From Paenibacillus plantiphilus (GTDB taxonomy: Bacteria > Bacillota > Bacilli > Paenibacillales > Paenibacillaceae), in the NCBI RefSeq assembly GCF_927798095.1, contig NZ_CAKMMF010000026.1, positions 63,097 through 87,096 of the forward strand: a stretch of 24,000 bases of DNA, written 5' to 3'. Below the pieces are notes generated by a model. It had not been told where the DNA came from and did no database searches. It saw only the letters and a program-made list of their open reading frames with translations. Positions 4,189 through 21,789 of this stretch are shown here, one piece after another (position 1 is the stretch's first letter; each line of letters begins with the position of its first letter). Made by a program: the position numbers and the translations under genes.

Positions 4189-4240
4189 CGTTTCTTCACC
4201 TTTATCCATCCGAATTGTATTGATTATCCTTGCACAAAAT

Positions 4241-5239
4241 CTATGGTGTCAGTTCGGTTCTAAACGGATAGAGCCGGTCCTTCTTCTCTGGATCGGCCAT
4301 CAATTCAAGCATGATCTCGGCCGCTCTCCTGCCCAGCTCGTCATCAGAAACCTTGATGCTCCGAATCGGCTTCAACGCCTCATCCCAGCCGCTTTGGTTA
4401 TAAATGATGCATGGAATATCAGGCTTCTTCTCGATGAAGTATCGGGCAACTCCAATGCTCAGCGTCTCATCGGTGCAAACAACGGCGTCCGCATGGCACT
4501 GCTCGATCAGGCGCTCTGCCATCGCGTATCCATTGCCGACTGCTGCGGCCGCAGCAGCAACAAGCGAATCATCCAGCCCCCTGCTGCTGTCTCTAATGGC
4601 TTTCTTATAGGCTTGATTGCATTCGATGTTCTTGACACAAGGTTCATCATTCTCAAGGAAGGCGATCGCCTGGCGTCCGCCCTTCACCAGCAAATCAGAA
4701 ACGGCCTCGTACAGCATCGAGAAATGATTGATGTAGATAAAGCAGCCCTGCTCATCCTCCATCGGTCTATAGTCGAGAAACAGAACCGGATAGGCCGGAT
4801 CGCTATTAGCAATGAATCGGCATAGCCGAGTGGTAGGCGAGACAATAATAAGGCCATCTACTGCATGCGTCAGCATGCTCCCTATTTGATCCCCATCTTC
4901 ATAGTCCAAGCTGGAGAACAAAATGCCGTAGCCCTTCTCACCCATTGCATGAGAAATCGCGTTAATCATTCCCATGTGCAAGCGCTTGGACGTACCTTCC
5001 CCTATCACAGGCGTAATAATACGGATCATTCTGGACTTCTTGTTCCTCAGATTCTGTGCTGCAGAATTGGGGACATAGTTAAGGCCCTCAATCGTCTTCA
5101 GCACCTTCTCTTTCGTCTCCGGGCTGACATACCGTGTACCGTTAATGACATGCGATACCGTCGCTATAGAGACGCCCGCTCTCCTAGCCACTTCTTTCAT
5201 ACTTCTATCCATCGGTCTTCTATCCATCGGCGTCACCAT
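4241..5239 (-). CDS. LacI/GalR-family transcriptional repressor
   Basis: N-terminal HTH MKEVARRAGVSIATVSHVINGTRYVSPETKEKVLKTIEGLNYVPNSAAQNLR is followed by a periplasmic-binding-protein-like sugar-binding core. The start is ambiguous between 5239, 5227 and 5200; the HTH begins at the ATG at 5200. Only ~30 nt separate it from the downstream kinase-GH32 gene, so the two are probably one operon. Confidence 0.9.
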   Translation of the reverse strand: MVTPMDRRPMDRSMKEVARRAGVSIATVSHVINGTRYVSPETKEKVLKTIEGLNYVPNSAAQNLRNKKSRMIRIITPVIGEGTSKRLHMGMINAISHAMGEKGYGILFSSLDYEDGDQIGSMLTHAVDGLIIVSPTTRLCRFIANSDPAYPVLFLDYRPMEDEQGCFIYINHFSMLYEAVSDLLVKGGRQAIAFLENDEPCVKNIECNQAYKKAIRDSSRGLDDSLVAAAAAAVGNGYAMAERLIEQCHADAVVCTDETLSIGVARYFIEKKPDIPCIIYNQSGWDEALKPIRSIKVSDDELGRRAAEIMLELMADPEKKDRLYPFRTELTP

Positions 5240-8519: not shown

Positions 8520-10025
8520 TTAATCCGCCGTATCCAGCTTAATCGTCTCAATATGCCGGTGCATCGCGCCATACCCGTTCGCCGTCTGTGCGATATAGTT
8601 AAGAACGGTGTCGCTCCAGCCATAGATATAGAAGGTATTCTGATCCTGCTGCGGCGTCATTGCATGCCGATAAGGCGCAATGTCGATAATAAATGCCTTT
8701 ACGTCCCGATTGACGGACGCTCTATATTGCTGCAAGGCGACATAGAACGGGCTGCCGCTGTTCTGCTGCTCGTCTGTAATAATGATGATCTGATCGACCT
8801 TGCGGCGCTCGTGGAGCAGCTTGCGAATCGGAGCGCCTGTATCTGTTCCTCCGCGTGCCCGAATACGCTCGGCCTGCGTTAGAATGCTGTCGCGCCGCGA
8901 TGGTCTGGCATCCTCCACCTCGGTATTGAACAGCCAGAACAGGGAGCTACCATTCGTCTTCTTGTACAGAGCCAGCGCAAATACAGAGCCAATCTGCAAA
9001 TAATCACCGCTCATGGAGCCGGAAATATCGAGGAAAATCGCTGTCCTGTCCGCCAAGTCCGGCAGATTCACGAACGTCAATTCCACTGCATCCCGAAGCG
9101 CGTCCCGCAGCACCGGGTGATCCACCTGCCCGAACGCTTTCGCGAATCGGAACGGGAGAATCTTCGCCTTCTCCAATGCCCGCTGATCGGTCAAGCGGCG
9201 AACCGCTGCCGCCACATTAGCCGGGTCATCCATCACGCCTTCACGCTGCAGCGTGTTCAAATGACGCAGCAGCGCGAAGGTCGGCATCTGATGAAACAGC
9301 GCTTCCCATACTGCCCGGGAAGGCTTGATGGCGCCGGTGACGATCTCGTAGGGCAGCCTGCCCTTATTGATCCAATGCAGCTGCTCCGCTTCCGTCGCCG
9401 CCTGCTTCAACCGCTCGAACGCCTCCACTTGCGGAACAAGGAGCAGGTTCGCTTCCTTGCCGCGCAAATAGCGGTACAATGCCTGCTGCTTCAAGTCAGC
9501 CGGCTTCGGGTGCGCGGTCGCAATTGCGTCGCCCAAGCTGTAGCCGCGTCCCCGTCCATTGTACTTCAGCGCCCAATATTCCGAGATGCCGGATAGAAAA
9601 CGGTTCACCTGTCTTTTGACCGCGCGGCCACCCTCTCCACGCCCCAATCCACGCATAATCATTAGAAAATCGGACAAGTCCGAAGGGATTCGAATCACTT
9701 GCAGGAATATAGGCGCGAACAGGTCCGGGCGATAGAGGGATAGAATGGCCAGCCCGAATATCGGCTGCAGCCGCATATAGCCTTCATTGCGCGCAAAGAC
9801 GACAGCCTGTGCCATGAACTGCGGATTGCTTCTCGCCATCTCATGGTGCAGCTCAACGGATTCTGATAGAAGCTCCTGCCCGTCCGCATAGAACGTATTG
9901 CCCAATGTATTGGTCATCAGCGTCTGCACATACTGCTCTTCGGCAGAACGGATGTAGGCGGGATAACCGTCTTTATTCCTAGCAGTCGGTCTGATCACCG
10001 AGAATAATTTTTTTGCAAAGCTCAT
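8520..10025 (-). CDS. rsr: Ro60-related protein Rsr (TROVE domain plus vWA domain)
   Basis: 501 aa counted from the ATG at 10025 (MSFAKKLF), which is preceded by AAGGAGG at 8 nt. The ORF-track start at 10073 has no SD. The N-terminal two-thirds look like a helical TROVE region (GYPAYIRSAEEQYVQTLMTNTLGNTFYADG..., AVVFARNEGYMRLQP). The C-terminus is a vWA fold with MIDAS motif FLDISGSMSG ... GGTDTG ... IIIITDEQ. A Y-RNA-like gene directly upstream supports the call. Confidence 0.85.
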   Translation of the reverse strand: MSFAKKLFSVIRPTARNKDGYPAYIRSAEEQYVQTLMTNTLGNTFYADGQELLSESVELHHEMARSNPQFMAQAVVFARNEGYMRLQPIFGLAILSLYRPDLFAPIFLQVIRIPSDLSDFLMIMRGLGRGEGGRAVKRQVNRFLSGISEYWALKYNGRGRGYSLGDAIATAHPKPADLKQQALYRYLRGKEANLLLVPQVEAFERLKQAATEAEQLHWINKGRLPYEIVTGAIKPSRAVWEALFHQMPTFALLRHLNTLQREGVMDDPANVAAAVRRLTDQRALEKAKILPFRFAKAFGQVDHPVLRDALRDAVELTFVNLPDLADRTAIFLDISGSMSGDYLQIGSVFALALYKKTNGSSLFWLFNTEVEDARPSRRDSILTQAERIRARGGTDTGAPIRKLLHERRKVDQIIIITDEQQNSGSPFYVALQQYRASVNRDVKAFIIDIAPYRHAMTPQQDQNTFYIYGWSDTVLNYIAQTANGYGAMHRHIETIKLDTAD

Positions 10026-10104
10026 GAAGAGCGCCTCCTTGATAGATCGGCGGGAAGAGGAGCAATACCCCATACATAAGCCGATTAGTGATGATTATTA
10101 ATTT

Positions 10105-10208
10105 GGAGCGAGGAAGGTCGTTAAGAAGGCATGCGGCATACCGGCCGAACAGCCGATGACTACCGCTCTTATACTTGGACGAAGTAGCCCTCTTTGGCGC
10201 CTCGCTCC
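10105..10208 (-). ncRNA. Second structured RNA module, homologous to the YrlA-like RNA but without a tRNA-like domain (candidate second Y RNA or structured rsr leader)
   Basis: On the minus strand, outer stem GGAGCGAGG (10208-10200) pairs perfectly with CCTCGCTCC (10113-10105). Inner stem AAGAGGGC (10194-10187) pairs with GCCTTCTT (10130-10123), with one G-U. An apical hairpin is CATCGGC-tgttcg-GCCG(gt)ATG. Its 5' strand GAGGcgccaAAGAGGGCtacttcg parallels GAGGcgcatGGAAGGGTtacttcg in the upstream module. Confidence 0.45.
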
Positions 10209-10209
10209 T

Positions 10210-10371
10210 GATGAAGCGATTGCAGATCGATTGAGGAAAAGGACGGAAAGGTGCCGCTCTACCATCTGAGCTATCCCGCCTTGCGGCGGGAGTTGGACTC
10301 GAACCAACGACATGCCGATTGGAAGTCGAAGTAACCCTTCCATGCGCCTCAATGATCTTCGCGAAGCATCC
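10210..10371 (-). ncRNA. yrlA: YrlA-class bacterial Y RNA candidate with circularly permuted tRNA-like domain
   Basis: The minus strand reads GATCATTGAGG-cgcat-GGAAGGGT-(25 nt)-GTTGG ttcgagt CCAAC-TCCCGCC-gcaa-GGCGGGA-ta-GCTC agatggta GAGC-ggc-ACCTTTCC-gtcctttt-CCTCAAT(C)GATC. That gives a canonical T arm (10308-10292). A 7-bp acceptor stem is capped by a 4-nt loop (10291-10274), with the 3' strand before the 5' strand. A canonical D arm with GG follows. No anticodon arm is present. In its place are an 8-bp helix and an 11-bp helix with one bulged C (10357-10347 / 10236-10225). The core spans 10225-10357; the outer limits are uncertain. It lies immediately upstream of rsr on the same strand. 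Confidence 0.7.
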
Positions 10372-10483
10372 AGCTTGCTAGACTTGCTAAACTCTCCAGC
10401 TTGCAATGTCGGCTTCACTCCCCTATCATCACTTATTTCAAGCTGGACGAACATGGCGAAAGTATGGCGACCCTGCAATTCCA

Positions 10484-10492
10484 TGTTATAAT
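10484..10492 (+). promoter_or_regulatory. Extended -10 promoter element (TGtTATAAT) for the GNAT-ABC-GNAT operon
   Basis: TG-n-TATAAT lies at 10484-10492, about 30 nt upstream of the ATG at 10523. The -35 region is poor (atggcg), which is tolerated at extended -10 promoters. Confidence 0.5.
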
Positions 10493-10522
10493 GGGCCCAA
10501 CAGCAAAGGGGAGATTTCTAGC

Positions 10523-11074
10523 ATGAGCTATTACTTTCAAATCTGCGCAACCGAGCGCTATCAAGAAAAGTACATCAGCTTCTTACTTGAGCATTATTCA
10601 GCACTCAACCTGCCCTATTCATTCCCAGTGGCGCTGAGCTATATTGCTAGTCCCGTTCTTATGACTGAAGAAGCTATTCTATACTTTGACCATAATGATG
10701 AAATAGCAGGCGCACTCGGATACATATACGGAACTGGCGAGCAGCACTATCAGGATACGGGCATCGTTCAGCTCCAAACTATATTTCTATTGGATAAGTA
10801 CCGCGGAACCCGTCTTTTCCTGGAAGGCCTGCAATACCTCACACAATATTTGGCGCAGCTCGACAGGGGGATCACAGAGCTTCGATTCTGGGTCCCAGCA
10901 AATAATCCGCAGCTTCGCCGATTGTGCGGCAAGCTGGCTCAGCGAACCGTCTCCGGCGAGACCGCCTTCGGAATGATAGACGAATACAGGTTGCCACTGC
11001 CACAGCTGCAGCAATATGTCGCCCGCTTCCGTCATGAATCCTACTTTGAAACCTATCGAGGGCATACAGTATGA
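10523..11074 (+). CDS. GNAT-like (acyl-CoA N-acyltransferase fold) protein, paralog 1
   Basis: 183 aa from the ATG at 10523, preceded by AAGGGGAG. The ORF-track start at 10406 would overlap the Y-RNA region and has no SD. It has a GNAT-like beta4-alpha3 segment IVQLQTIFLLDKYRGTRLFLEGLQYLTQYLAQ followed by ELRFWVPANNPQLRRLCGKLA. Its TGA stop overlaps the ATG of the ABC gene (ATGA at 11071-11074). It is a clear paralog of the 13242..13766 product. Confidence 0.7.
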   Translation: MSYYFQICATERYQEKYISFLLEHYSALNLPYSFPVALSYIASPVLMTEEAILYFDHNDEIAGALGYIYGTGEQHYQDTGIVQLQTIFLLDKYRGTRLFLEGLQYLTQYLAQLDRGITELRFWVPANNPQLRRLCGKLAQRTVSGETAFGMIDEYRLPLPQLQQYVARFRHESYFETYRGHTV

Positions 11075-13227
11075 TCATGGTCCTTCGAAATCTGGCAAGC
11101 TATCTTCGCCCGTACAAGCTGCTGTCCTTCCTCTTTTTTGCCGGACTGTTCCTGGATCTCGCTTTCGTTTCTCTTGCTCCCTTGAGCTTCAAGTTCATGG
11201 TGGACAACGCGATCATCCCCCATGATTTCGGACAATTCTACCTGATCCTCTCCATCCTTGGAATCGCAGGCTTAATTGGCTTCAGCTCAGGCATTATAAG
11301 CGACTACATATTATCCAAATTGAGCGCCCGCGTACAAAGAGACCTGCGCAGCGGCTTATTCGCTCACCTTCAACATGTGAATATCGCCTTCTTCCAGCGC
11401 ACTCGCGCCAGCGACCTGCTCTCCTATCTCTCTGGCGACTTATCCGCAATCGACCGGGCAATGACGGTCATTCTGACGACAGGCATTCAATCTGTGTCCG
11501 TTGTAATCATTAGCGCGGGCGTGCTCTTCACATTAGAATGGAGCATGGCCGTACTCGTACTGATCGGCGCCGTTCTTATATTCACCGGACCTTACCTGCT
11601 CGGCGGACGTGCTCAAGCCATCAATGCCCAGTACAAGGATCAGATGTCGCTTATGACTGGCGATGTCCAAGAGAACATTAAAGCACAGCGGGTCATTAAA
11701 GGCTTCCATCTGCAGCAGCTCATGATCGACAAGTTCCATACAAGACTGCAATCCTTATTCGTCATCGATTATAAGAAGAATGTGATCAACTCCAGTCTGG
11801 AGCGCATCCCGATGATTAGTCTGCTGCTGATCAACTTCACCATTATCGGGTTCGGCTCCTACCTTGCGCTGCAAGGCCAAATTACGGTAGGCGCGCTTGT
11901 CGCGTTCTTCACGATGTATACCTCGATGGGCAACTCGGTATTCAACCTGACCTTCGCTATTCCGGCTTTCACAGATGCGAAGGTGAGCATGGATCGCATT
12001 CAACAGCTTCTTGTAGAGCTGCCCGAAGCCAATGGGACAGTGCAGCTCCAGCCGCTGCCGAATCAACAGCTTGACATTGAAGCCCGCGAGCTGACTTTCC
12101 GATATGCGGAAAAGCAGGATGTATTGAAGGACATTAACCTGCATATCCCGCCAGGAACGACGGCAGCATTCGTAGGCTCCAGCGGCTCCGGGAAAAGCAC
12201 GATGGTGCAGCTTATTCTCGGCTTCTACGCCCCCAACGAGGGGCATATTCGAATAAACGGCATCAGCCTGCAGGAAATGGACAAGGGCTCCTTGCGTGAG
12301 CAGATCGGCATTGTGTTTCAGGATAACTTCCTTTTTCGGGGCACGATTATGGACAATTTACGTTTGAGCAAGCCCCATGCCACCAGGGAAGAAGTGATTC
12401 AAGCGGCTGCAAAAGCCGAGATTGACGGCTTCATTCAAAGCCTGCCGGATGGTTATGAGACCGAGGTACTGGATGAGGGAGGCAATTTCTCCGGCGGTCA
12501 GCGCCAGCGAATAGCTATCGCCCGCGCTATCCTTAGAGATCCGCAGATTCTGCTGCTCGACGAGGCAACCTCCGCTCTGGACCCGATCTCGGAAGCCTCC
12601 ATTAACGAAACGTTCCGCCGCTTAGCGCATAATCGCACGGTGGTCACCGTCACTCATCGGCTGTCTGCAATAACGGATGCGGACCAAATTTTTGTATTTG
12701 ATCAAGGAAAGCTGATCGAAAGCGGCACTCATAGAGAGATGCTCGCTGCAGAAGGGTACTATAAAGAGCTGTGGGATAAGCAGAACGGACTGTCTGTATC
12801 GCCAAGCGGCGAAGAGGCGGAGATTGATGAGAACCGGCTTGCGAGACTGCCTTTTTTCCGAGATATGAACATTGACGTGCTTCGCGAAATCAAAGATTTA
12901 TTCAACACAGAAACATTCAGCGCCGGACAAGCGGTCATTCATGAGGGGGAAGCAGGCAACAAGTTCTATATCATCGCCCGCGGCAAAGTAGAAATTTCAA
13001 AACGTCCCGTTGGAGATGCAGAGCGCATCCGGTTAGCCATACTCGCGGACGGGGATCACTTCGGGGAAATTGCGCTGCTGGAAAATGTCCCGCGAACTGC
13101 GGATGTATCGGCATTGACGGAATGCACCTTTCTTACCCTGCAGCGCAAAGTGCTTCATTATGTCCTGTCTCAATATCCCGAGCTTGATGCCCGCGTCCGA
13201 GAGAAGTTAAAGGAACGCTACAACTAG
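11071..13227 (+). CDS. ABC exporter half-transporter (6-TM type I exporter TMD plus NBD) fused to a C-terminal cyclic-nucleotide-binding (CAP_ED) domain
   Basis: The N-terminal ~300 aa are hydrophobic helices. The NBD has Walker A GSSGSGKST, signature FSGGQRQR, Walker B ILLLDEATSALD and H-loop VTHR. The last ~132 aa (nt ~12829-13224) form a cNMP-binding domain: LPFFRDMNIDVLREI..., GEAGNKFYIIARGKVEI, and phosphate-binding cassette FGEIALLENVPRTADV with the conserved Arg. Confidence 0.9.
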   Translation: MIMVLRNLASYLRPYKLLSFLFFAGLFLDLAFVSLAPLSFKFMVDNAIIPHDFGQFYLILSILGIAGLIGFSSGIISDYILSKLSARVQRDLRSGLFAHLQHVNIAFFQRTRASDLLSYLSGDLSAIDRAMTVILTTGIQSVSVVIISAGVLFTLEWSMAVLVLIGAVLIFTGPYLLGGRAQAINAQYKDQMSLMTGDVQENIKAQRVIKGFHLQQLMIDKFHTRLQSLFVIDYKKNVINSSLERIPMISLLLINFTIIGFGSYLALQGQITVGALVAFFTMYTSMGNSVFNLTFAIPAFTDAKVSMDRIQQLLVELPEANGTVQLQPLPNQQLDIEARELTFRYAEKQDVLKDINLHIPPGTTAAFVGSSGSGKSTMVQLILGFYAPNEGHIRINGISLQEMDKGSLREQIGIVFQDNFLFRGTIMDNLRLSKPHATREEVIQAAAKAEIDGFIQSLPDGYETEVLDEGGNFSGGQRQRIAIARAILRDPQILLLDEATSALDPISEASINETFRRLAHNRTVVTVTHRLSAITDADQIFVFDQGKLIESGTHREMLAAEGYYKELWDKQNGLSVSPSGEEAEIDENRLARLPFFRDMNIDVLREIKDLFNTETFSAGQAVIHEGEAGNKFYIIARGKVEISKRPVGDAERIRLAILADGDHFGEIALLENVPRTADVSALTECTFLTLQRKVLHYVLSQYPELDARVREKLKERYN

Positions 13228-13241
13228 GAGGCTTCCCTATT

Positions 13242-13766
13242 ATGACTGCACATCATCTCCGAATCTGCCGAACGGACGAGGATTTCGTCCAATTCACGCT
13301 CTTTTTCATCCGGCACCGTAAGGATTTCAGCAGTAATTTCAGTCTGTCCGACACGTTGATACACACGCTGGAAACGATTCAGACCTCAAATATTCAACTC
13401 ATCTTGGACGAGAGCGATCGAACAATTGGCTGGGTGATCTACCGCTATGTTACAGCGGACTACGAGCCACATCCCCAGGGTGAAATCGTCTTTATAGATT
13501 CAGTGATTATTGCTAGGGAGTATCGCAGCAGCCGCTTGTTCGTTACCGGCCTGCGCCAGTTGCTCCGACATATTGCAGCAGAGAACCGTCATGTGCGCAC
13601 CTTTCAATTCTTCGCCCTCCAGAATGACCGCTATTTGACCCGGCTGTATTCCAAATTCGCCACAATTACGGGGCAGAGAGACGGCTATCACGGAACAGAA
13701 AACATATTTTCCAATAATTTCTATAATGTTTTAAAATACTTTGATATATCTGACAATTTAAGTTGA
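13242..13766 (+). CDS. GNAT-like protein, paralog 2
   Basis: 174 aa, with GGAGG 9 nt upstream and a start 14 nt after the ABC stop. IVFIDSVIIAREYRSSRLFVTGLRQLLRHIAA...TFQFFALQNDRYLTRLYSKFA aligns position by position with paralog 1 (YR-x-x-RLF, GL, N-x-x-L-x-RL-x-K-x-A). Confidence 0.7.
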   Translation: MTAHHLRICRTDEDFVQFTLFFIRHRKDFSSNFSLSDTLIHTLETIQTSNIQLILDESDRTIGWVIYRYVTADYEPHPQGEIVFIDSVIIAREYRSSRLFVTGLRQLLRHIAAENRHVRTFQFFALQNDRYLTRLYSKFATITGQRDGYHGTENIFSNNFYNVLKYFDISDNLS

Positions 13767-13944: not shown

Positions 13945-14048
13945 TCCGTTTCATATTACGAACAGAAGGCTGTCCCTTTAAGTGATATGCTCCCCATACA
14001 GTAGACAGGTGAAATAATAAAACCTGATACTGTAAGGGGAGTTTTTTT

Positions 14049-14726
14049 ATGCATAAAAAGAAGCATACAGCTTCAGAGAAATTAGCAATCATTCAGGAAA
14101 TTGAGAGTGGTCGTATTGGCGTTAAAGCTGCTGTTAAAACATTTGCTGTTTCCAAAACATCCTTAGCGAAATGGCGACGAACGTATCGGCTGTTTGGCTA
14201 TGAAGGACTAGAGGCTCAAACCCATAACCGAAGCTATTCCACCGAGCTTAAGATTCAAGCTGTAAAAGACCATCTTGAAGGGGGCTTGTCTCAATACCAA
14301 GTTATCGACAAGTACAGGATTGCAAGCAGAACACAACTCGCGAACTGGATTAAGAAGTATAATGGTCATATCAGCCTTCGAGCTTATACAGGGGGAATAA
14401 CAGCTATGACCAAAGGACGCACAACAACATGGCAGGAGAGGATCGACATTGTCCTTTATTGCCTGGCAAATGGACAAGACTACAGGAAGACAGCGGACCA
14501 ATTCCAAGTCTCCTACCAGCAAGTGTACGGATGGGTAAGGAAACATAAAGCAGGCGGCCAAGAGGCTCTGCGAGACGGAAGAGGACGCACAAAAGCGCCA
14601 GAGGAGCTGACGGAGTCGGATCAGCATAAACTTGCCCTGAAGAAGATGGAGTACGAGAACGAACGGCTCCGGGCGGAGAATGCATTCTTAAAAAAGTTGC
14701 AGGAATTAGAAAGGAGGCGACTCTAA
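14049..14726 (+). CDS. IS3-family transposase OrfA (HTH domains plus leucine-zipper-like C-terminus)
   Basis: HTH segments occur repeatedly (SEKLAIIQEIESGRIGVKAAVKTFAVSKTSLAKWRR; LSQYQVIDKYRIASRTQLANWIKKY; DYRKTADQFQVSYQQVYGWVRKH). The coiled-coil tail is LALKKMEYENERLRAENAFLKKLQELE. Confidence 0.9.
   Translation: MHKKKHTASEKLAIIQEIESGRIGVKAAVKTFAVSKTSLAKWRRTYRLFGYEGLEAQTHNRSYSTELKIQAVKDHLEGGLSQYQVIDKYRIASRTQLANWIKKYNGHISLRAYTGGITAMTKGRTTTWQERIDIVLYCLANGQDYRKTADQFQVSYQQVYGWVRKHKAGGQEALRDGRGRTKAPEELTESDQHKLALKKMEYENERLRAENAFLKKLQELERRRL
14690..14696 (+). promoter_or_regulatory. Programmed -1 ribosomal frameshift heptamer A_AAA_AAG
   Basis: In the orfA frame the codons are tta-AAA-AAG (14688-14696). 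The -1 frame is open from here to 15604 (KKVAGIRKEATLSEQRQENVYLAIQ...). This is the classic IS3/IS150 slippery motif. Confidence 0.8.
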
Positions 14727-15604
14727 GCGAGCAACGACAAGAGAACGTCTACCTTGCTATCCAAGCCGTACAGCAAGCGGAGTCGCTTAGCATACAGGTT
14801 CTGTGTGAGGTTGCGGAGATCCCACGATCGAGCTATTACAAGTGGCTGAATCGTATTCCCAGCACTAGAGAAACGGAGAACAAAGCGCTAACGGAGGTCA
14901 TGATGGCCTTGTACGAGAAAGTCGAAGGCATATTCGGCTATCGCCAATTACCACTCCATATGCGACGCCAAACCCAGAAATCAATGAACCACAAACGCGT
15001 GCAACGCTTGATGAAGATAAAGGGAATCCAGTCGGTGATCCGCAGAAAGAAAAAGAAGTATGAGCGTTCTACGCCGCAGCAGGTGGCCGAGAATGTATTG
15101 AACCGCGAGTTTCAAGCGGAGGCACCGAACGAGAAGTGGCTAACGGACGTAACGGAATTCAAGTACGGCAATAGTCAGAAAGCGTATTTAAGCGCGATAC
15201 TCGATCTTCATGATAAATCGATCGTCTCTTATGTATTCGGACATTCCAATAATAATCCGCTTGTATTTGAGACGTTAAAATTGGCCTTAATATCCGTATC
15301 CGAGAGCAAGCCATTGCTTCATAGCGACCGTGGCTTTCAGTATACTTCTTTACGGTTTAAGGAAATGCTCGATAAGGCTGAGCTCAAGCAGAGCATGTCT
15401 CGCGTTGGCTGTTGCATTGATAACGGTCCCATGGAATCCTTCTGGGGAACTTTGAAATGCGAGAAATATTATTTGCATACCTACCAGACCTTTGAACAAC
15501 TGAAAAGTGACATTGATGACTACATTCACTTTTACAATTACGAACGATTGCAGGCAAAATTAAACGGCCTCAGTCCTATGGAATTCAGGACAAAGGCCGC
15601 CTAA
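14696..15604 (+). CDS. IS3-family transposase OrfB portion (DDE/rve integrase core), expressed as an OrfAB fusion by -1 frameshifting
   Basis: The -1 frame relative to orfA is continuous from the slippery site onward. The catalytic region has WLTDVTEF (D), LHSDRGFQYTS (D) and NGPMESFWGTLKCE (E). The ORF track only reports the segment from the internal ATG at 14900. Confidence 0.85.
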   Translation, partial: VAGIRKEATLSEQRQENVYLAIQAVQQAESLSIQVLCEVAEIPRSSYYKWLNRIPSTRETENKALTEVMMALYEKVEGIFGYRQLPLHMRRQTQKSMNHKRVQRLMKIKGIQSVIRRKKKKYERSTPQQVAENVLNREFQAEAPNEKWLTDVTEFKYGNSQKAYLSAILDLHDKSIVSYVFGHSNNNPLVFETLKLALISVSESKPLLHSDRGFQYTSLRFKEMLDKAELKQSMSRVGCCIDNGPMESFWGTLKCEKYYLHTYQTFEQLKSDIDDYIHFYNYERLQAKLNGLSPMEFRTKAA

Positions 15605-15702
15605 CTGATTTTTATTTATTGTTCTGTCTACTTGACGGGGTGCAGTTCATAAGAGCTAATAGCTCCTAAGGGACAGCCTTCTGTGTTGCTTGTTGTTTGT
15701 AT

Positions 15703-15770
15703 GGTCGAACGACCGCCGTCATGCACAATCACACCGCGCTGGGAGCTGCGCGCGGTGTGATTCTGGCAGC
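15703..15770. repeat. REP-like intergenic repeat, copy 3 (best hairpin)
   Basis: ggtcgaaCGACCGCCGTCATGCAcaat-CACACCGCGC (15730-15739) tgggagctgc GCGCGGTGTG (15750-15759) forms a perfect 10-bp stem. The segment CACCGCGCTGGGAGCTGCGC is identical to copy 2. It lies ~75 nt downstream of the stop of the large minus-strand transporter gene and 18 nt from the IS right end. Confidence 0.8.
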
Positions 15771-15842
15771 CAAAGCCGCTCTTTGTTTGCAGAGCAGCAC
15801 GGTTATACGCTCACATTGGTTCCCCAACTCGCGCTGCACATC

Positions 15843-18800
15843 TTATGCCACGCCCTTAAGCCGATCGGCGAGAACACGCATCATGCTTCTTAGGACCTCA
15901 ATATTTTGGAAGCAGAATGTCAATACCTGCTCTTTGTGCAGCCTCAGCAGCACAGCTGCGCTTACCACGGTACAATCCGCTGAACGCGGGCCGCTGTCAA
16001 TGATGGACATTTCCCCGAAAAAGTCGCCTTCCCCAAGCACTGCCAGTTCATCGCTTCCACGATGCACACGAACGACTCCTTCAATAATCCCGTACATCGT
16101 ATCTCCGAATTCGCCTGTCCTGCATATAACCTCGCCCTGCTCGTAGCTGACCTCCTCCACATGCTGGGCCAGCCATATGAAGTCCGCTGGCGCTAAATGA
16201 GCGAACAGATCCATCTTTTGCAGGACCAATACTCGCCGGAGAATAGCGGCATCCGTCAATTGCCTCACCGTATCATCCAGCTCTAAGGAAGGAGCGGCCT
16301 CCGAATGGGCGGCACTGGGTTGAACTTCAACCGCCTTCCCGTTTCGACCGTCTGCGAGCTCTAGTACAGCTCTGAGCCTGCGAGATAACAGCTTCATCAT
16401 CTCCAGCACGATGCTCGACTGATCGAACATCATATCATAGAAGTCGGAAGCATGAAGCTTCCATATTCCAATACTCTCTTCCGCGCGGATCGTAGCCGTT
16501 CGGGGCCCCTGAGTCAGAACAGCCAGCTCACCGAAGCAATCGCCCCTGCTCAGCTCGCTGATCGGTTCGCCATTCCGATAGACGCCTGCTCGCCCTTTAT
16601 CCACAATCATAAGCGAGTCGCCTGGCTCCCCTTCATGAATAATGATGCTGCCCTTATCCATGCTGACCTTCTGCAATCGCTGTGCAATGACAAATAGATG
16701 TCTACTCGTCAAGCCTTGAAACAACGATACCTTTCGCAATAGCCGCACGCGTTCCAGCCGATCAGACAGCCGGTTGAATAGTTCCGCTGTATCCTGTTCC
16801 TCTGACTGTCCAGCCGTTTCCTGTCCCTTCTCCTGGAGCATAAAGAAGGTAACCGTCTCACGAAACCACTCGTCTCCCTGAGAAGCGAGCCAGCTCAGTT
16901 TCTCTTCTCTCTGGACTTCGCTATGAGGAGCTGGCGCAATGGCTCTTGGAGCGGACATTAATTTCGCCATCTGGAGCCGAAGCTTCCCGCGCAGCGTTTG
17001 GTCGATCACTTCTTCAGCGTTAGCCTGCCGCCTCGCATCCCCTTCCGACCAGTTTATATATACGGCCTGTATCGTAGGCGCATCATAAAGCAAGGACAGC
17101 AGCTGGAAGATACGGCGGGAGATTCCACTTCGAATTTCACCAATCATGCCTTCTAGTTCGGCATAGCGCGCATCTCCGCTGACGGCCGTTCCATGCTCGC
17201 CATACTGCCAGTACAATTGCAGCTCTTGCGAAATAAGGCGTTCCAGCTCCTGGCTGTCACCTTGCAGCAATCCTGTATCCATCCGAAGCAAGGATTGCAG
17301 GATGCGGTCCCGCAGCTCCTGATTAGCAGCCTCGTAACATGCAAACAGACTCTCGAATGCCCTCTGCGTGCCCATTCGTTCAAAGATAGCCGGCAAATGC
17401 AAGCTAACCTCTTCATTGTCCATATAGGGCTGCAGCTGCGAGAGCATCTCCTGCTCATCATAGCCAGCCAGCGCATCAATTGCATATCGTCTCGTCCGGC
17501 TGTTCTTCAGGCTTCCTATTATTGACGGAATCAAAGCAGGAACGCGCAGCATAGCCGCCGATTCCAACGCTCGTTTCTTCACCTTCGTGCTGCGATCATC
17601 CAGCAATGGGAGAAGCGGCTTATAGAAGCTTGCAACACCAATCTGTCCGAACAGCGCTGCCATAGCAGTTCGTTCTTCCTCTCGGCCGCTCTCAATCAGA
17701 AGCTTAAGCTGGCCAACCGCTCTGAACATGCCCTCAATGCCATAATATTTGATCAAACCAGCGATAGCAGCCGCTTGGATCTGTATGGATTCCGCCTCCA
17801 GACAGCTTGCAATCTCATCCAAATACGCTTCTTCCGCATAAGCAGCGAGCGCAAGAATGGCCCCGGCCTTAACTTCGACGACCGCCGCCGAGCTTGCATA
17901 GGATTGCAGGAGGGGCTCGAAGCCTGCTGGCAGCGTTTCTTCCACAACCTGCAACGCCTCGATGCGAACCTCAGACGCAGGATGTTGAAGCAGCGCCCTT
18001 ATATGAGGGGTCAAATCAAACGTCTCCAGCCCACGCAATATACGAATAGCATACAAGGTTTGCTGCTTGTCAGGACTGGATAATGCAGCAAGCAATAGCT
18101 GCATGCTGGAGGGGTCCACGAAATCGAGCTCCATCCGTTGAAGCTCGCCCTTCCCCGTTTGCAGGCTGGTCATAAGCGCATGCAAATACGCTTTCTTCAC
18201 CTTGACGCCGTAAACAATTCCCACAACAAGCAGGACAATTACGATATAGCTCAGCTGTTGCGGTGCAACCAGCTGTGTAACAACGAGCAAGCAGATGGCC
18301 GCAAGTCCTTTTGCCCCATTCCGCACGATGCCGTCCAGGAAGCTCTTGGCCTTTCCGCGCCATTCCGGGGGAATTGGGAACATCACGAGCTGATTCACGG
18401 AAGAATAAATCGTATCCCCGACAGCCTTGTCACTGCCCTTAACGATAACTGCCATGACCAGAATAGGCAGAAGCATGATTCCGAAGCTGCCTGCTGCCAG
18501 CACGACCGGGAAGATGAGCAGCGAAGTCATAACACCGAACCGCGTTAACACGCGGCCGGCAATAAACAGCTGTACGAATAGAGCAATAAGTCCCGAGTAG
18601 CCGTAGAAGCTGCCCATGAATCCCGCCAACTCATCATTTTGCAAGGAAGTCCTTAATATGACTTTGAACTGGTAATCTATCAAGGTTAGCGACATTACAA
18701 TTGCGACAGATAGAATAGCGATATATTTCAAATAGGGAACATTGGCAAAAAGCCCTGAATTGGATTGCGCTGCCCTCTTGGAGGAATTCGACCTGCGCTG

Positions 18801-19445
18801 TACAGGTCTGGCCTCTTGAGAAGACGAGGATGCGCTATCCTTCAAGATCAGAACTGCAAGGAGACATAGCAAATGAAGCCCCGCGTAGACATAGATCAGA
18901 TTCGCCGTCCCGATGCTCGGAGCCAGCGCCTTCAGCCCGAAGCCGCTCAAGATTCCGCCTGTTATTCCGCCGCTTCCTACGATTCCGATCATTCGCTTCG
19001 CTTTTCGCTGGTCCATAACGGATGTGGCGAACTGCCAAAAACAAACGATCATCAGAAAGTTGATGACATCATAACCGACATAAATAACGGGAAACACCCA
19101 GCGCAGCTCCAACCCGACGCCAACTCTTGAGACAAGAACCAGCGCCGCTGTGAGCGGAATTAAACCGATGATCAAGCGGTCCATTCGTATTCGATGGGAG
19201 AAGCGTTGATATACGAGGCTTGCAACAATCATCGCAGCCGCCAGCGGCAAGTACATATAAGACAGGGACGAATTATCAAACCGACTTAGAAAAAGCGTAT
19301 CCGCAGTCGTTCTTCCAATGGTAGAAGCCGCCGCAACGCAAAATAAATAGCCGAACAGGATGAATACCTTCCGATATTCTTCCCGATCCGCTGAAAGCTT
19401 GTTCCCAATATTCCGAGATGCTATACCCGCTATGAAGCTGCCCAT
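15843..19445 (-). CDS. Large multidomain membrane protein: N-terminal ~12-TM transporter domain (MFS fold, TLC/Npt ATP:ADP-antiporter-like), HEAT-repeat region, two tandem C-terminal cNMP-binding domains
   Basis: About 1200 aa from the ATG at 19445 (MGSFIAGIASR), preceded by GGGGGAA. The ORF-track start at 19508 has no SD. The N-terminus REEYRKVFILFGYLFCVAAASTIGRTTADTLFLSRF and about 12 hydrophobic helices run to ~nt 18110. HEAT-like repeats follow (SPDKQQTLYAIRILRGL, HPASEVRIEALQVV, DDRSTKVKKRALESAAML, SRTRRYAIDALAGY). cNMP domain 1 (~16374-16763) has FGELAVLTQGPRTATI. cNMP domain 2 (~15846-16247) has FGEMSIIDSGPRSADC. Confidence 0.88.
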   Translation of the reverse strand: MGSFIAGIASRNIGNKLSADREEYRKVFILFGYLFCVAAASTIGRTTADTLFLSRFDNSSLSYMYLPLAAAMIVASLVYQRFSHRIRMDRLIIGLIPLTAALVLVSRVGVGLELRWVFPVIYVGYDVINFLMIVCFWQFATSVMDQRKAKRMIGIVGSGGITGGILSGFGLKALAPSIGTANLIYVYAGLHLLCLLAVLILKDSASSSSQEARPVQRRSNSSKRAAQSNSGLFANVPYLKYIAILSVAIVMSLTLIDYQFKVILRTSLQNDELAGFMGSFYGYSGLIALFVQLFIAGRVLTRFGVMTSLLIFPVVLAAGSFGIMLLPILVMAVIVKGSDKAVGDTIYSSVNQLVMFPIPPEWRGKAKSFLDGIVRNGAKGLAAICLLVVTQLVAPQQLSYIVIVLLVVGIVYGVKVKKAYLHALMTSLQTGKGELQRMELDFVDPSSMQLLLAALSSPDKQQTLYAIRILRGLETFDLTPHIRALLQHPASEVRIEALQVVEETLPAGFEPLLQSYASSAAVVEVKAGAILALAAYAEEAYLDEIASCLEAESIQIQAAAIAGLIKYYGIEGMFRAVGQLKLLIESGREEERTAMAALFGQIGVASFYKPLLPLLDDRSTKVKKRALESAAMLRVPALIPSIIGSLKNSRTRRYAIDALAGYDEQEMLSQLQPYMDNEEVSLHLPAIFERMGTQRAFESLFACYEAANQELRDRILQSLLRMDTGLLQGDSQELERLISQELQLYWQYGEHGTAVSGDARYAELEGMIGEIRSGISRRIFQLLSLLYDAPTIQAVYINWSEGDARRQANAEEVIDQTLRGKLRLQMAKLMSAPRAIAPAPHSEVQREEKLSWLASQGDEWFRETVTFFMLQEKGQETAGQSEEQDTAELFNRLSDRLERVRLLRKVSLFQGLTSRHLFVIAQRLQKVSMDKGSIIIHEGEPGDSLMIVDKGRAGVYRNGEPISELSRGDCFGELAVLTQGPRTATIRAEESIGIWKLHASDFYDMMFDQSSIVLEMMKLLSRRLRAVLELADGRNGKAVEVQPSAAHSEAAPSLELDDTVRQLTDAAILRRVLVLQKMDLFAHLAPADFIWLAQHVEEVSYEQGEVICRTGEFGDTMYGIIEGVVRVHRGSDELAVLGEGDFFGEMSIIDSGPRSADCTVVSAAVLLRLHKEQVLTFCFQNIEVLRSMMRVLADRLKGVA

Positions 19446-19553
19446 GCAGCAGTTCCCCCAATTCGCTGTCTGTGTCCATTTACTGAAATAACATAACAAT
19501 GTTTTCATAGATAAGCAATATTGAGACAGCGGTCACCACAACCTATACTGCTA

Positions 19554-19976
19554 TTATCGTGGAGCGTTGGCATCCGAATCGTCTTCAGGCTCAATCTGCT
19601 TATCTACTTCAATGATCTCCTTATTGTTCACAGCGTCTTCACCGAAGAAATCAACCAGCTTGTCCTTCGCTCTCCGCTTGACTTCACCGTCAATGCTCAT
19701 TCCAACTCGTGCCGCAGCGAATAGCAGCACGCCCAAATCATCCGCAAAGCCTCCAGGGATAATATCCGGAATGATATCGATGGGAAGAATCAGATAACCA
19801 AGAGCCCCATAAATAATCGCCTTATCCCTCGTACTTGTATTCGGGCTTTGCAAGGCATAATACAGTACAAGACCGCTGTATACGACTTTTATCCCTGCAT
19901 GGACTGCATGCTTCCGAAGCTTGGTCCAGAATCCGTCCTCTGAAAAATGCTTCTGATACTTCGAATCTTCCCCCAT
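19554..19976 (-). CDS. YkvA/DUF1232-family membrane protein
   Basis: It carries the DUF1232 signature ALGYLILPIDIIPDIIPGGFADDLGVLLFA. The start is uncertain: the ORF track gives a TTG-type start at 20000, while the ATG at 19976 has AAAGGATGG 6 nt upstream. It is co-directional with, and 46-109 nt upstream of, the large cNMP transporter gene. Confidence 0.8.
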   Translation of the reverse strand: MGEDSKYQKHFSEDGFWTKLRKHAVHAGIKVVYSGLVLYYALQSPNTSTRDKAIIYGALGYLILPIDIIPDIIPGGFADDLGVLLFAAARVGMSIDGEVKRRAKDKLVDFFGEDAVNNKEIIEVDKQIEPEDDSDANAPR

Positions 19977-20204
19977 CGCCATCCATCCTTTTTTGTACAA
20001 ATTAAGCTTACATCGTATATTACCATGAATATGGGCAATGCAGGAGGCGGCAGCGATCCGCTGTCTTCATCTCGATAAATGCAAGATCTCCAGCCTCTCC
20101 AACTGAAGGCACTTCGCGGATTCTGGCCGCTCCTCAAATCCCAACCGCCCCTCTGGCATCAACTATGTTATCATTAGAGGCAACTACACCCCAGGAGATT
20201 ATCT

Positions 20205-20831
20205 ATGTTGAAAAAGATTAGTTTAACCCTTCTATATACAGCAGCTGCTATCGCGATCTATCTATTCGGCGACACTATCATGAACTGGCTTCAGCACTCC
20301 ACCAATGTACCGGCCATTATTCTCGTTGCTATTCTGATGGCCTTGTTCCCGATCATCCCTTATCCAATTGTCGGCGGCGTTATTGGTGCGGCGTTAGGGC
20401 CGCTGCTTGGAGCACTAGTGACCTGGATCGGTTCAACGGTCGCTTCTATTCTAATGTTTGCATTCGTGAGATATGGATATCAAGACTGGGGTAACCGCAT
20501 TCTGCATCGCTATCAAAAAATAGACAAGCTGAATTCACTATTCGAGCGCAATGCGTTCTTGGCCGTATTATTTGCTAGACTAATTCCGTTCATTCCATCC
20601 TTTGCAGTGAATGTCTATGCGGCTCTTAGCCGGATGTCTTTCCTATCCTACTCGGTCGCCTCATCCTTGGGCAAAATACCTTCGATGCTGCTGTTCGTCG
20701 TTGTCGGGAGCAACGCAGTCACCGACCCCAAGAGCATCCTTACAACCGTGCTCATATACAGTGTATTTCTTGCCATCTCGCTGGCTGCATATCGCTGGTG
20801 GAGAAGAAGGTCTGGGAAGCGGCTTGCGTAG
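20205..20831 (+). CDS. TVP38/TMEM64 (DedA/SNARE-associated) family membrane protein
   Basis: It has five to six TM helices and the family-typical segment RLIPFIPSFAVNVYAALSRMSFLSYSVASSLGKIPSMLLFVVVG. AGGAG lies 8 nt upstream of the ATG. Confidence 0.8.
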   Translation: MLKKISLTLLYTAAAIAIYLFGDTIMNWLQHSTNVPAIILVAILMALFPIIPYPIVGGVIGAALGPLLGALVTWIGSTVASILMFAFVRYGYQDWGNRILHRYQKIDKLNSLFERNAFLAVLFARLIPFIPSFAVNVYAALSRMSFLSYSVASSLGKIPSMLLFVVVGSNAVTDPKSILTTVLIYSVFLAISLAAYRWWRRRSGKRLA

Positions 20832-20862: not shown

Positions 20863-21789
20863 CTATTCCAAATTTGTAACCCCAAAAGGGACATGTGCGG
20901 ATGGAGAAATACTTGATACGCCCTCAATGTGACCTACTTGATCATCGAAGAAGATATGTGGCCGAAATACCTTCAGTACCCTGCCTTTATCTATTCCCCC
21001 TAAGAAAAATGCTTCGTCAACTCGTATGCCGTAGCTTCTTAAAGTTGTTACAACTCGTTCATGAGCAGGTGCGTTTCTAGCTGTTGCAATTGCTATTCGA
21101 ACACGCGGCGTATAGCTAGTATCCTGTTGCTTCTTCTCCCATTCGCGCCGTTGCAGACGAGCCACCTCCTGAAAAAATTTGATGAGGGGGCCTGGCGGCA
21201 GAACCTCACTCGCCTTTTGCCTCTCATTCTCATGGAATCGCTGCATGCCTAGCTCTTGATATATGCCTTCCGATGAGTCGTCAGCGATAATTCCATCAAA
21301 ATCAAATGCAATTCGAAGTTCAAGCTCTTCTTCATTATCCACAAATTCAGTAGGGAACACTCGGGCTGCTGGCAGTCCTTTGCTTACGGCAGCTCGAACA
21401 TCGTCCAGATTCGCAGAAAGAAATAGCGATGCGTTGAATGCTTCCATATAATTAAACGGGTTGGAGCCAGCAACGAATGCGGCCCGTGTTATTGAAAGCC
21501 CATAGTGTTCAATGGACTTAAAAACACGAAGCCCTGTCTCCGGGTCATTTCTAGACAAAAGAACGACCTCAACCGGTTGATCACTTGGATCATGACTATT
21601 AAGCATAAGCAACCGTTTAATCAATGGAAAAGCTACCCCAGGTTCCAATACAGCCTGCTCATTCGCAAACTGATACTTTCGATATTCCTCTTCGCCCTTT
21701 TCCTGAAACACCCGATCCGACTCCTCAAGGTTAAATAGAGCACTTGAAGCAACGGCAACTACAAATTTTTCTTCTATTAGAAAAGGCAT
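20863..21789 (-). CDS. 5'-nucleotidase of the cN-IA-like (cytosolic 5'-nucleotidase IA type) family
   Basis: N-terminal VVAVASSALFNLEESDRVFQEKGEEEYRKYQFANEQAVLEPGVAFPLIKRLL and the HAD-like DFDG motif (RIAFDFDGIIADD) match my recollection of this family. The SD is GGGGAGGAAA. Confidence 0.7.
   Translation of the reverse strand: MPFLIEEKFVVAVASSALFNLEESDRVFQEKGEEEYRKYQFANEQAVLEPGVAFPLIKRLLMLNSHDPSDQPVEVVLLSRNDPETGLRVFKSIEHYGLSITRAAFVAGSNPFNYMEAFNASLFLSANLDDVRAAVSKGLPAARVFPTEFVDNEEELELRIAFDFDGIIADDSSEGIYQELGMQRFHENERQKASEVLPPGPLIKFFQEVARLQRREWEKKQQDTSYTPRVRIAIATARNAPAHERVVTTLRSYGIRVDEAFFLGGIDKGRVLKVFRPHIFFDDQVGHIEGVSSISPSAHVPFGVTNLE

Follow-up and report, generated by a model that had tools for sequence, protein, structure and literature searches.

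An NTT-HEAT fusion protein with two cyclic nucleotide-binding domains in Paenibacillus plantiphilus, and a clade signature in its membrane domain

We analyzed a 24,000-nucleotide (nt) stretch of the genome of Paenibacillus plantiphilus (assembly GCF_927798095.1, contig NZ_CAKMMF010000026.1, positions 63,097 to 87,096; hereafter the window) and describe here one minus-strand gene within it, the product of which joins a nucleotide transporter (NTT)-type membrane domain of the major facilitator superfamily (MFS) to a HEAT-like solenoid, a conserved all-helical domain and two consecutive cyclic nucleoside monophosphate (cNMP)-binding domains (cNBDs). The features of the gene, with amino acid (aa) numbering from the start codon at 19445 and with TM denoting a transmembrane segment, are as follows:

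19454..19459, minus strand: GGGGGA resembling a Shine-Dalgarno site, 8 nt ahead of the start codon at 19445 (direct reading of the sequence)
15843..19445, minus strand: complete coding sequence of the NTT-HEAT-helical-cNBD-cNBD protein, 1200 aa plus stop (list of open reading frames, NCBI match, end-to-end orthologues)
18156..19385, minus strand: NTT/TLC-type MFS membrane domain, aa 21–430, 12 TM (Pfam, PDB sequence and fold matches, hydropathy)
17280..18113, minus strand: HEAT-like (PBS-HEAT/alphaRep-like) solenoid, aa 445–722 (HEAT_2, HEAT_EZ and HEAT; alphaRep matches in the PDB; model)
16731..17255, minus strand: conserved all-helical domain, aa 731–905 (alignment of 57 orthologues; model with predicted local distance difference test [pLDDT] ~90)
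16341..16730, minus strand: cNMP-binding domain A, aa 906–1035 (Pfam cNMP_binding; PKG, PKA-R and CRP matches; model)
16491..16535, minus strand: phosphate-binding cassette (PBC) of domain A, FGELAVLTQGPRTAT, aa 971–985 (sequence reading and ortholog alignment)
16257..16340, minus strand: linker between the two cNBDs, aa 1036–1063, 28 aa (pLDDT <50 for aa 1037–1063; consensus mostly 'x')
15846..16256, minus strand: cNMP-binding domain B, aa 1064–1200 (best Pfam cNMP_binding stretch; MloK1, SthK and CRP matches; model)
15975..16019, minus strand: PBC of domain B, FGEMSIIDSGPRSAD, aa 1143–1157 (sequence reading and ortholog alignment)

Counted from its first ATG, the minus-strand open reading frame (ORF) runs from 19508 to 15843 and comprises 1221 aa; the start at 19445 corresponds to the second methionine of this frame, Met22. 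The GGGGGA that precedes the ATG at 19445 supports Met22 as the true start, and direct reading found no Shine-Dalgarno-like site upstream of the ATG at 19508. We rejected the longer frame because it lacks a ribosome-binding site and because the NCBI protein and the orthologues begin at or near Met22. Indeed, the 1200-aa form is 100% identical to the NCBI entry 'hypothetical protein PAECIP111893_04132 [Paenibacillus plantiphilus]', and 57 orthologues (1160–1250 aa, sharing ~50% identity) align with it over its full length. The gene is intact and codes for one polypeptide; the ORF, the upstream GGGGGA and the identical NCBI protein all agree with the coordinates and the length of about 1200 aa that had been proposed from the bare sequence (herein the original prediction).

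The original prediction also proposed that the polypeptide consists of a transporter, HEAT repeats and tandem cNMP-binding domains, and this order is confirmed both by Pfam coordinates and by an AlphaFold2 model. Counting Pfam matches only above the gathering score of each model, all four relevant families pass: TLC (51.5 bits against a cutoff of 21, spanning aa 136–345 of the long ORF), MFS_1 (38 bits against 33.4), HEAT_2 (48.7 bits against 27.7, in five stretches) and cNMP_binding (133 bits in total against 27.5, in two stretches). The full-length model, built on the 57-sequence alignment, has a mean pLDDT of 84.4. It begins with an amphipathic helix, continues with twelve long helices of the membrane part (aa 21–430), a paired-helix solenoid (aa 445–722) and an all-helical domain (aa 731–905), and ends in two beta-barrel cNBDs (aa 906–1035 and 1064–1200). 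A membrane domain of about twelve TM segments had likewise been predicted correctly, as 12 segments are found both by hydropathy and among the model helices. The hydropathy profile places a K/R-rich central loop between TM segments; together with the twelve segments this would put the C-terminal domains in the cytoplasm, and the hydropathy and positive-inside pattern suggest that both termini of the membrane domain would lie inside the cell.

Proteins of this architecture are abundant among close relatives. The top 120 database matches are all full-length proteins of Paenibacillus or Cohnella (49–94% identity), carrying automatic names such as 'Npt1/Npt2 family nucleotide transporter' or 'ADP,ATP carrier protein', and over 100 proteins of these two genera preserve the architecture from end to end. 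The membrane domain alone matches 8,767 cluster representatives at E ≤ 1e-3. The 149 best of these representatives (E ≤ 9e-45) are almost all 900–1250 aa long and have HEAT regions (8 with two cNBDs, 35 with one, and most of the others NTT-HEAT proteins of ~940 aa), whereas canonical NTTs reach only 7e-13; the more distant representatives with two cNBDs are mostly metagenomic sequences according to a cluster look-up. These scores, in which fusion representatives rank above canonical NTTs, appear consistent with the published monophyly of NTT-HEAT proteins.

The family was described by Major, Embley and Williams (Genome Biol Evol 9:480, 2017; PMC5381601), in whose account the NTT-HEAT(-cNBD) fusions are monophyletic, the cNBD is fused in some cases and encoded by a separate downstream gene in others, a duplicated cNBD is common only to Bacilli and oomycetes, and the family as a whole extends to cyanobacteria, chlamydiae and oomycetes. 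The authors also state that no NTT-HEAT fusion had been characterized and suggest that cAMP might adjust NTT-mediated ATP uptake. The protein described here is a member of this family in the duplicated-cNBD form of Bacilli: it has the same order of NTT, HEAT and cNBD and the same cNBD duplication, with no difference in kind from the published fusions, and like others of them it is bacterial, uncharacterized and found in a free-living host (PMC5381601). The original prediction held that databases contain such architectures only as uncharacterized proteins, which is correct for database names (uncharacterized or automatically assigned to Npt1/Npt2). The architecture is not new, nor is the idea of cNMP-tuned nucleotide transport, since PMC5381601 makes the same proposal, duplicated cNBD in Bacilli included. 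The architecture, its distribution and the gating hypothesis have thus been in print since 2017, and finding them again adds little. What is new here is a residue-level comparison with NTT structures released in 2025, together with a signature of the double-cNBD clade on TM1, TM10 and TM11; a term search of the text of PMC5381601 available to us found neither the clade substitutions on these helices nor the helical domain between HEAT and cNBD.

NTTs are usually taken as hallmarks of energy parasitism. The fusion clade is large and occurs in free-living bacteria, cyanobacteria, chlamydiae and oomycetes. A culturable Paenibacillus with an intact copy is a convenient organism in which to ask whether cNMPs gate an MFS-type carrier and what free-living bacteria do with an NTT.

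The relation of the membrane domain to NTTs is supported by sequence and by fold. Its only sequence relatives in the PDB at E < 0.01 are Chlamydia pneumoniae NTT1 (CpNTT1; 9j3n, E 7e-13) and Arabidopsis AtNTT1 (9j3j, E 2e-4); PDB searches with the N-terminal 120 aa and with aa 300–450 alone gave no match. As the tandem cNBDs dominated the fold matches of the full-length model, we modeled the membrane domain separately (aa 1–440; pLDDT 81, predicted template modeling score [pTM] 0.80), and the 12 helices and the MFS fold were retained. Foldseek searches of the PDB with this model returned NTT structures at ranks 1–5 (9j3n, 9j3l, 9j3m, 9j3o and 9j3j; E 1.8e-11 to 6e-7, TMq up to 0.74), with other MFS transporters (such as NorA, VMAT2 and G6PT1) starting at E ~2e-6. 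A family profile built locally from 134 diverse membrane-domain representatives of the fusion family reaches 124 bits with the fragment of CpNTT1 and 92 bits with that of AtNTT1, and the motif FW.FA...AKR is common to this membrane domain and canonical NTTs. Membership of the NTT/TLC superfamily (PF03219, TC 2.A.12) is solid, and the assignment of the original prediction to the TLC/NTT branch of MFS-fold transporters stands on the PDB sequence matches, all of them NTTs, and on the top five fold matches. The original prediction had named a lack of similarity to TLC or MFS transporters as fatal to it; the TLC score given above and the NTT structures as best matches are the opposite of this. Compared with the canonical NTT/TLC ATP:ADP antiporters of known structure (AtNTT1 and CpNTT1; PDB 9j3j–9j3o), the protein shares the 12-TM MFS-type fold with only ~18–19% identity and carries ~770 additional cytoplasmic residues; moreover, the canonical hosts are an obligate intracellular organism or a plastid, whereas P. 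plantiphilus is free-living.

Four charged residues of AtNTT1 (K155, E245, E385 and K527) are important for transport and widely conserved among characterized NTTs, although two microsporidian NTTs lack three of the four (PMC4256464). To transfer the AtNTT1 numbering, PDB chain stretches were rebuilt from HMMER alignments, where an offset of 84 places E161 and E301 of the chain on E245 and E385, respectively, which validates the numbering. The equivalent positions, all on the minus strand, are:

19251..19253: Tyr65 (TM2), at the site of AtNTT1 Lys155 (profile alignment; Tyr/Phe in 118/134 representatives)
19068..19070: Asp126 (TM4), equivalent to AtNTT1 Glu245 (pairwise and profile alignments to AtNTT1 and CpNTT1; acidic in 104/134 representatives)
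18675..18677: Asp257 (TM7, motif D-Y-Q-F-K), equivalent to AtNTT1 Glu385 (Asp in 124/134 representatives; invariant in Paenibacillaceae)
18309..18311: Lys379 (TM11), at the site of the lysine in canonical 'GKSGG' (profile alignment; invariant in the 57 orthologues, variable in the wider fusion family)

The lysine of 'GKSGG' is most likely AtNTT1 Lys527, judging by spacing: K527 lies 142 residues past E385 in AtNTT1 and the GKSGG lysine lies 143 residues past the homologous Glu in CpNTT1, where the KVKGK lysines are only 127–131 residues past it. Three of the four critical charges are therefore kept, two of them as Glu-to-Asp replacements. Within TM4, TM7, TM10 and TM11, D126, D257, K261, K336, D339, D344 and K379 are invariant among the orthologues. 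Given the microsporidian NTTs that also depart from the pattern, comparison of these four residues does not settle the substrate.

Beyond the membrane, the original prediction of a HEAT solenoid of ~250 aa followed by a helical linker requires some revision. HEAT repeats are present, over ~280 aa rather than ~250: excised from the protein, this region scores 59 bits on Pfam HEAT_2 with additional matches to HEAT_EZ and HEAT, it resembles the alphaRep designed HEAT-like repeats in the PDB, and its paired helices have pLDDT above 90 in the full-length model. The supposed linker is a domain in its own right. Aa 731–905 have no Pfam match and contain an invariant motif, NWSEGDARRQANAEEVIDQ (aa 798–816, nt 16998..17054; consensus NWSEGDARxQANAxEVIDQ), and the columns W799, G802, Q807, A808, N809, E812, D815, Q816 and R823 are invariant in all 57 orthologues. 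The domain is also found in 33 relatives without a cNBD among the 149 best representatives, and it is a candidate coupling or partner-binding module.

Both C-terminal domains are modeled as beta-barrels with flanking helices (the strands of domain A fall at E925–998), and their best sequence matches are PKG, PKA-R, MloK1, SthK and CRP. Both PBCs carry Gly-Glu and Arg-[Ser/Thr]-Ala; the PBC arginine that the original prediction had noted in each domain is indeed retained, with both quoted strings present. The two sites differ in how strictly they are kept among the 57 orthologues. In site B, F1143, G1144, E1145, R1154, S1155, A1156, D1157 and C1158 are invariant and the residues between are nearly so, whereas in site A G972 is invariant, R982 is found in 55/57 and Arg-Thr/Ser-Ala is kept in nearly all. 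The PBC motifs, from which the ligand class is deduced, do not discriminate among cAMP, cGMP, cCMP and cUMP, and a literature search on cNMP synthesis in Paenibacillus found nothing useful. The tandem CNB-A/CNB-B domains of PKA-R and PKG, to which the C-terminal 300 aa match best in both sequence and fold, are also two consecutive CAP-type domains with a G-E...R-[ST]-A PBC. In contrast to their continuous B/C helix, the two domains here are joined by the disordered linker of ~28 aa, their relative orientation does not superpose (root mean square deviation 11–20 Å), and the output would be a transporter rather than a kinase.

We hypothesize that the protein is a cNMP-gated NTT-type carrier with a nucleotide substrate, which is the best-supported reading and one that we hold with moderate confidence; the substrate, the direction of transport, the cNBD ligand and the allosteric coupling are elements that we infer. 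The 12-TM domain would lie in the cytoplasmic membrane, with both of its ends inside the cell, and would move a nucleotide or nucleotide-like anionic solute by alternating access, while the HEAT solenoid and the conserved helical domain would form a cytoplasmic arm bearing two CAP-type sensors. Binding of a 3',5'-cyclic nucleotide, mainly at site B, which is strictly conserved, and with modulation by the less constrained site A, may rearrange the PBC, hinge and lid, by analogy with PKA-R, HCN or SLC9C1; the change would then travel via the arm to the cytoplasmic face of the transporter and relieve or impose inhibition of the transport cycle. A bacterium living free in soil would probably use such a carrier to scavenge external nucleotides, under the control of a nutritional state encoded in cNMPs.

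Two known types of membrane protein offer partial parallels. The sperm Na+/H+ exchanger SLC9C1 (PDB 8pcz, 8pdv and 8xq4), which is among the fold matches of the full-length model, is a secondary transporter regulated by a C-terminal cytoplasmic CNBD and serves as a functional analogue in which cNMPs act on a transporter and not on a channel; it differs in having an NhaA/CPA fold instead of the MFS fold, a voltage-sensor domain, a single CNBD and no HEAT arm, and in being eukaryotic. MloK1 and SthK are prokaryotic membrane proteins with a gating C-terminal cNBD, which domain B resembles down to the PRSA PBC; unlike the monomer-type MFS carrier considered here, with its 460-aa helical arm between membrane part and cNBDs, both form tetrameric K+ channels in which a single cNBD is attached directly through a C-linker.

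Several observations weigh against a gated nucleotide carrier. The pTM of the full-length model is only 0.61. The ribose-binding Glu of site A (E973) is Gln in 25/57 orthologues, although P. plantiphilus retains the Glu. The equivalent of Lys155 is lost, with Tyr65 in its place. On TIGR00769 the protein scores 48.9 bits against an equivalog cutoff of 387.2, so far below that it is not classed as a canonical ATP/ADP exchanger, and by its sequence we would not regard it as an orthologue of the canonical NTP/NDP exchangers. Our synteny comparison of five contexts (P. plantiphilus, P. oenotherae, Paenibacillus sp. Soil750, Cohnella abietis and C. herbarum) revealed no conserved partner gene, and the neighbours suggest no pathway. 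In the literature we found no functional study of any member of the NTT-HEAT clade, later papers merely citing PMC5381601. Finally, comparison of representatives with two, one or no cNBD alongside canonical NTTs indicates that basic and aromatic residues common to canonical NTTs and the wider fusion family are missing from the double-cNBD clade (positions 48, 343, 344 and 348), as the following positions illustrate:

Position 48 (TM1): Arg in the wider family; Lys of RDTKD in canonical NTTs; Ala in the double-cNBD clade
Position 343 (TM10): Arg/Lys in the wider family; Lys in canonical NTTs; Gly/Ala in the double-cNBD clade
Position 344 (TM10): Tyr/Phe in the wider family; Tyr in canonical NTTs; Asp in the double-cNBD clade
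Position 348 (TM10): Asp/Asn in the wider family; Asp in canonical NTTs; Ser in the double-cNBD clade
Position 379 (TM11): variable in the wider family; Lys in canonical NTTs; Lys in the double-cNBD clade

Accordingly, the canonical 'K-Y-x-x-F-D' of TM10 reads G-D-T-I-Y-S in the present protein, and the Lys of TM1 'RDTKD' is Ala. In MFS transporters, TM1, TM4, TM7 and TM10 line the central cavity. The clade changes would together remove two cationic side chains and move one acid, leaving a cavity less cationic than expected for a site that binds ATP or another triphosphate; this lowers confidence in ATP/ADP as the substrate, and the signature, as far as aligned residues can indicate, weakens that assumption. 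We tentatively propose, while considering it a doubtful extension of the gated-carrier reading, that the double-cNBD clade of Paenibacillaceae and relatives represents a cNMP-gated MFS carrier with a remodeled cavity (A48, G343, D344, S348 and K379), the specificity of which has moved away from ATP/ADP, perhaps to a different nucleotide-like compound; a nucleoside monophosphate, a cofactor or the cyclic nucleotide itself is conceivable. If true, the clade would provide the first demonstrated case of a bacterial secondary transporter that a cNMP switches allosterically by way of a lever of HEAT repeats.

The same residues also bear on a different proposal, that the protein is a cNMP-regulated transporter of a non-nucleotide solute (a phosphorylated metabolite, a cofactor or an organic ion) and that 'nucleotide transporter' is simply an inherited annotation. 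The TIGR00769 score, the replacement of Lys155 by Tyr and the residues peculiar to the clade (A48, G343, D344, S348 and K379) all favour it, as does the variety of substrates among characterized NTT relatives (AtNTT1, the NAD carrier Npt1 of C. trachomatis and the S-adenosylmethionine carrier of Amoebophilus, cited in PMC5381601); in addition, the free-living host has no obvious need to import ATP, if its lifestyle is a guide. However, the nearest relatives in sequence and fold are all nucleotide translocators, the acids of TM4 and TM7, the lysine of TM11 and the FW.FA...AKR motif are kept, and the microsporidian NTTs without three of the four charges are still grouped with nucleotide transport proteins (PMC4256464). 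On balance, we consider a non-nucleotide substrate rather unlikely, and it is the alternative that survives best.

It is also conceivable that the membrane domain does not transport at all and that the protein is a transceptor or scaffold, in which the NTT-like domain senses a ligand or serves only as an anchor and the HEAT arm recruits partners in a cNMP-dependent manner as part of a signalling hub. HEAT repeats are typical protein–protein interaction modules (PMC5381601), the helical domain bears a surface-like polar motif that is invariant (NWSEGDARxQANAxEVIDQ), and no operon partner hints at a metabolic pathway. Against this, the invariant polar and charged residues inside TM4, TM7, TM10 and TM11 form the kind of pattern that active transport paths typically show, the model retains the full set of 12 helices and the MFS fold with good confidence, and no partner gene co-occurs; a scaffold role accordingly strikes us as improbable.

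We rejected as the main explanation, and regard as highly improbable, a Pycsar-like anti-phage effector in which a cyclic nucleotide produced in response to a phage would cause the transporter to open, so that nucleotides are drained or exchanged and the infection aborts: both cNBDs match the cNMP-binding part of PycTIR and other Pycsar effector profiles of PADLOC (89 bits) and the neighbourhood contains a candidate-defence 5'-nucleotidase (PDC-S08, 450 bits), an IS3 element and an Rsr/YrlA-like pair, but the PADLOC matches are limited to the generic cNBD (profile positions ~33–140), no cyclase gene was found in Pfam scans of the larger ORFs of the window, in the PADLOC scan of the target and five neighbours or among the called neighbours of four orthologues, and the full-length conservation in more than 100 Paenibacillus and Cohnella proteins (49–94% identity), within a family that reaches cyanobacteria, chlamydiae and oomycetes (PMC5381601), looks like a widely retained gene and not a sporadic one of a defence island.

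Turning to the surroundings of the gene, which stands by itself, a conserved operon or neighbour was rejected as a functional clue, since the five contexts have no partner in common. A cluster of three plus-strand genes at 10406..13766 includes an ABC exporter (ABC_membrane and ABC_tran) with a C-terminal cNMP-binding domain at 11071..13227, flanked by ORFs of 222 aa and 174 aa, neither of which has a family match. Among the five contexts, this cluster adjoins the NTT-HEAT-cNBD gene only in P. plantiphilus and P. oenotherae, the closest pair of species; the nearby presence of a second transporter bearing a cNBD suggests that the organism uses cNMP-type signals.

On the other side of the NTT-HEAT-cNBD gene, a DUF1232 membrane protein gene (19554..20000, minus strand) lies on the same strand and ends 109 nt upstream of it, followed by a divergent VTT/DedA-family gene (20205..20831, plus strand) and by a PF06189 5'-nucleotidase gene (20863..21789, minus strand; 419 bits), which is three genes upstream of the target, past DUF1232 and VTT. 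Along its whole length, the nucleotidase also matches PDC-S08, which PADLOC lists as a candidate defence family of the single-gene type (450.9 bits, E 4.6e-136). In the other species examined, none of these three genes is syntenic with the transporter.

Downstream of the stop codon, a hairpin at 15724..15765 (16 bp, 94% complementary, 10-nt loop) lies ~80 nt past the end of the target; as the minus strand has no T-run after it, the hairpin does not qualify as a canonical intrinsic terminator. A promoter and terminator scan of 15550–20250 found sites no more numerous than in shuffled sequence. Farther downstream is an IS3-family element (~13983..15649), bounded by imperfect terminal inverted repeats of 40 nt; its orfA occupies 14049..14726 and its orfB 14900..15604. 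The element sits inside a perfect 17-bp inverted repeat (13962–13978/15668–15684). This repeat resembles a hairpin, placed between the NTT-HEAT-cNBD gene and the convergent gene of 174 aa, that the insertion has split. The element is absent from the equivalent place in P. oenotherae, and megablast of a plasmid collection found no near-identical copy.

Two further loci in the window merit mention. A divergent Ro60/Rsr-like gene (8520..10073, minus strand) encodes TROVE and vWA_Ro60 domains and reaches only 92.8 bits with NCBIfam Rsr, whose cutoff is 900. Approximately 180 nt upstream of it and on the same strand lies a sub-threshold match to the Y RNA-like YrlA (10253..10315, minus strand; 38.6 bits, where the gathering score is 69; E 2.3e-6; model positions 24–84 of 114), overlapped by an ORF at 10098..10484 (minus strand) that has no family match; the gene and the RNA match are probably a divergent Rsr/Y-RNA pair in Paenibacillus. 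Finally, an 817-aa fusion encoded at 1756..4209 (minus strand) combines an N-terminal PfkB-family sugar kinase with a complete GH32 (N and C domains) and adjoins a LacI-type regulator gene at 4241..5239; it is a kinase-fructosidase fusion for sucrose or fructan use.

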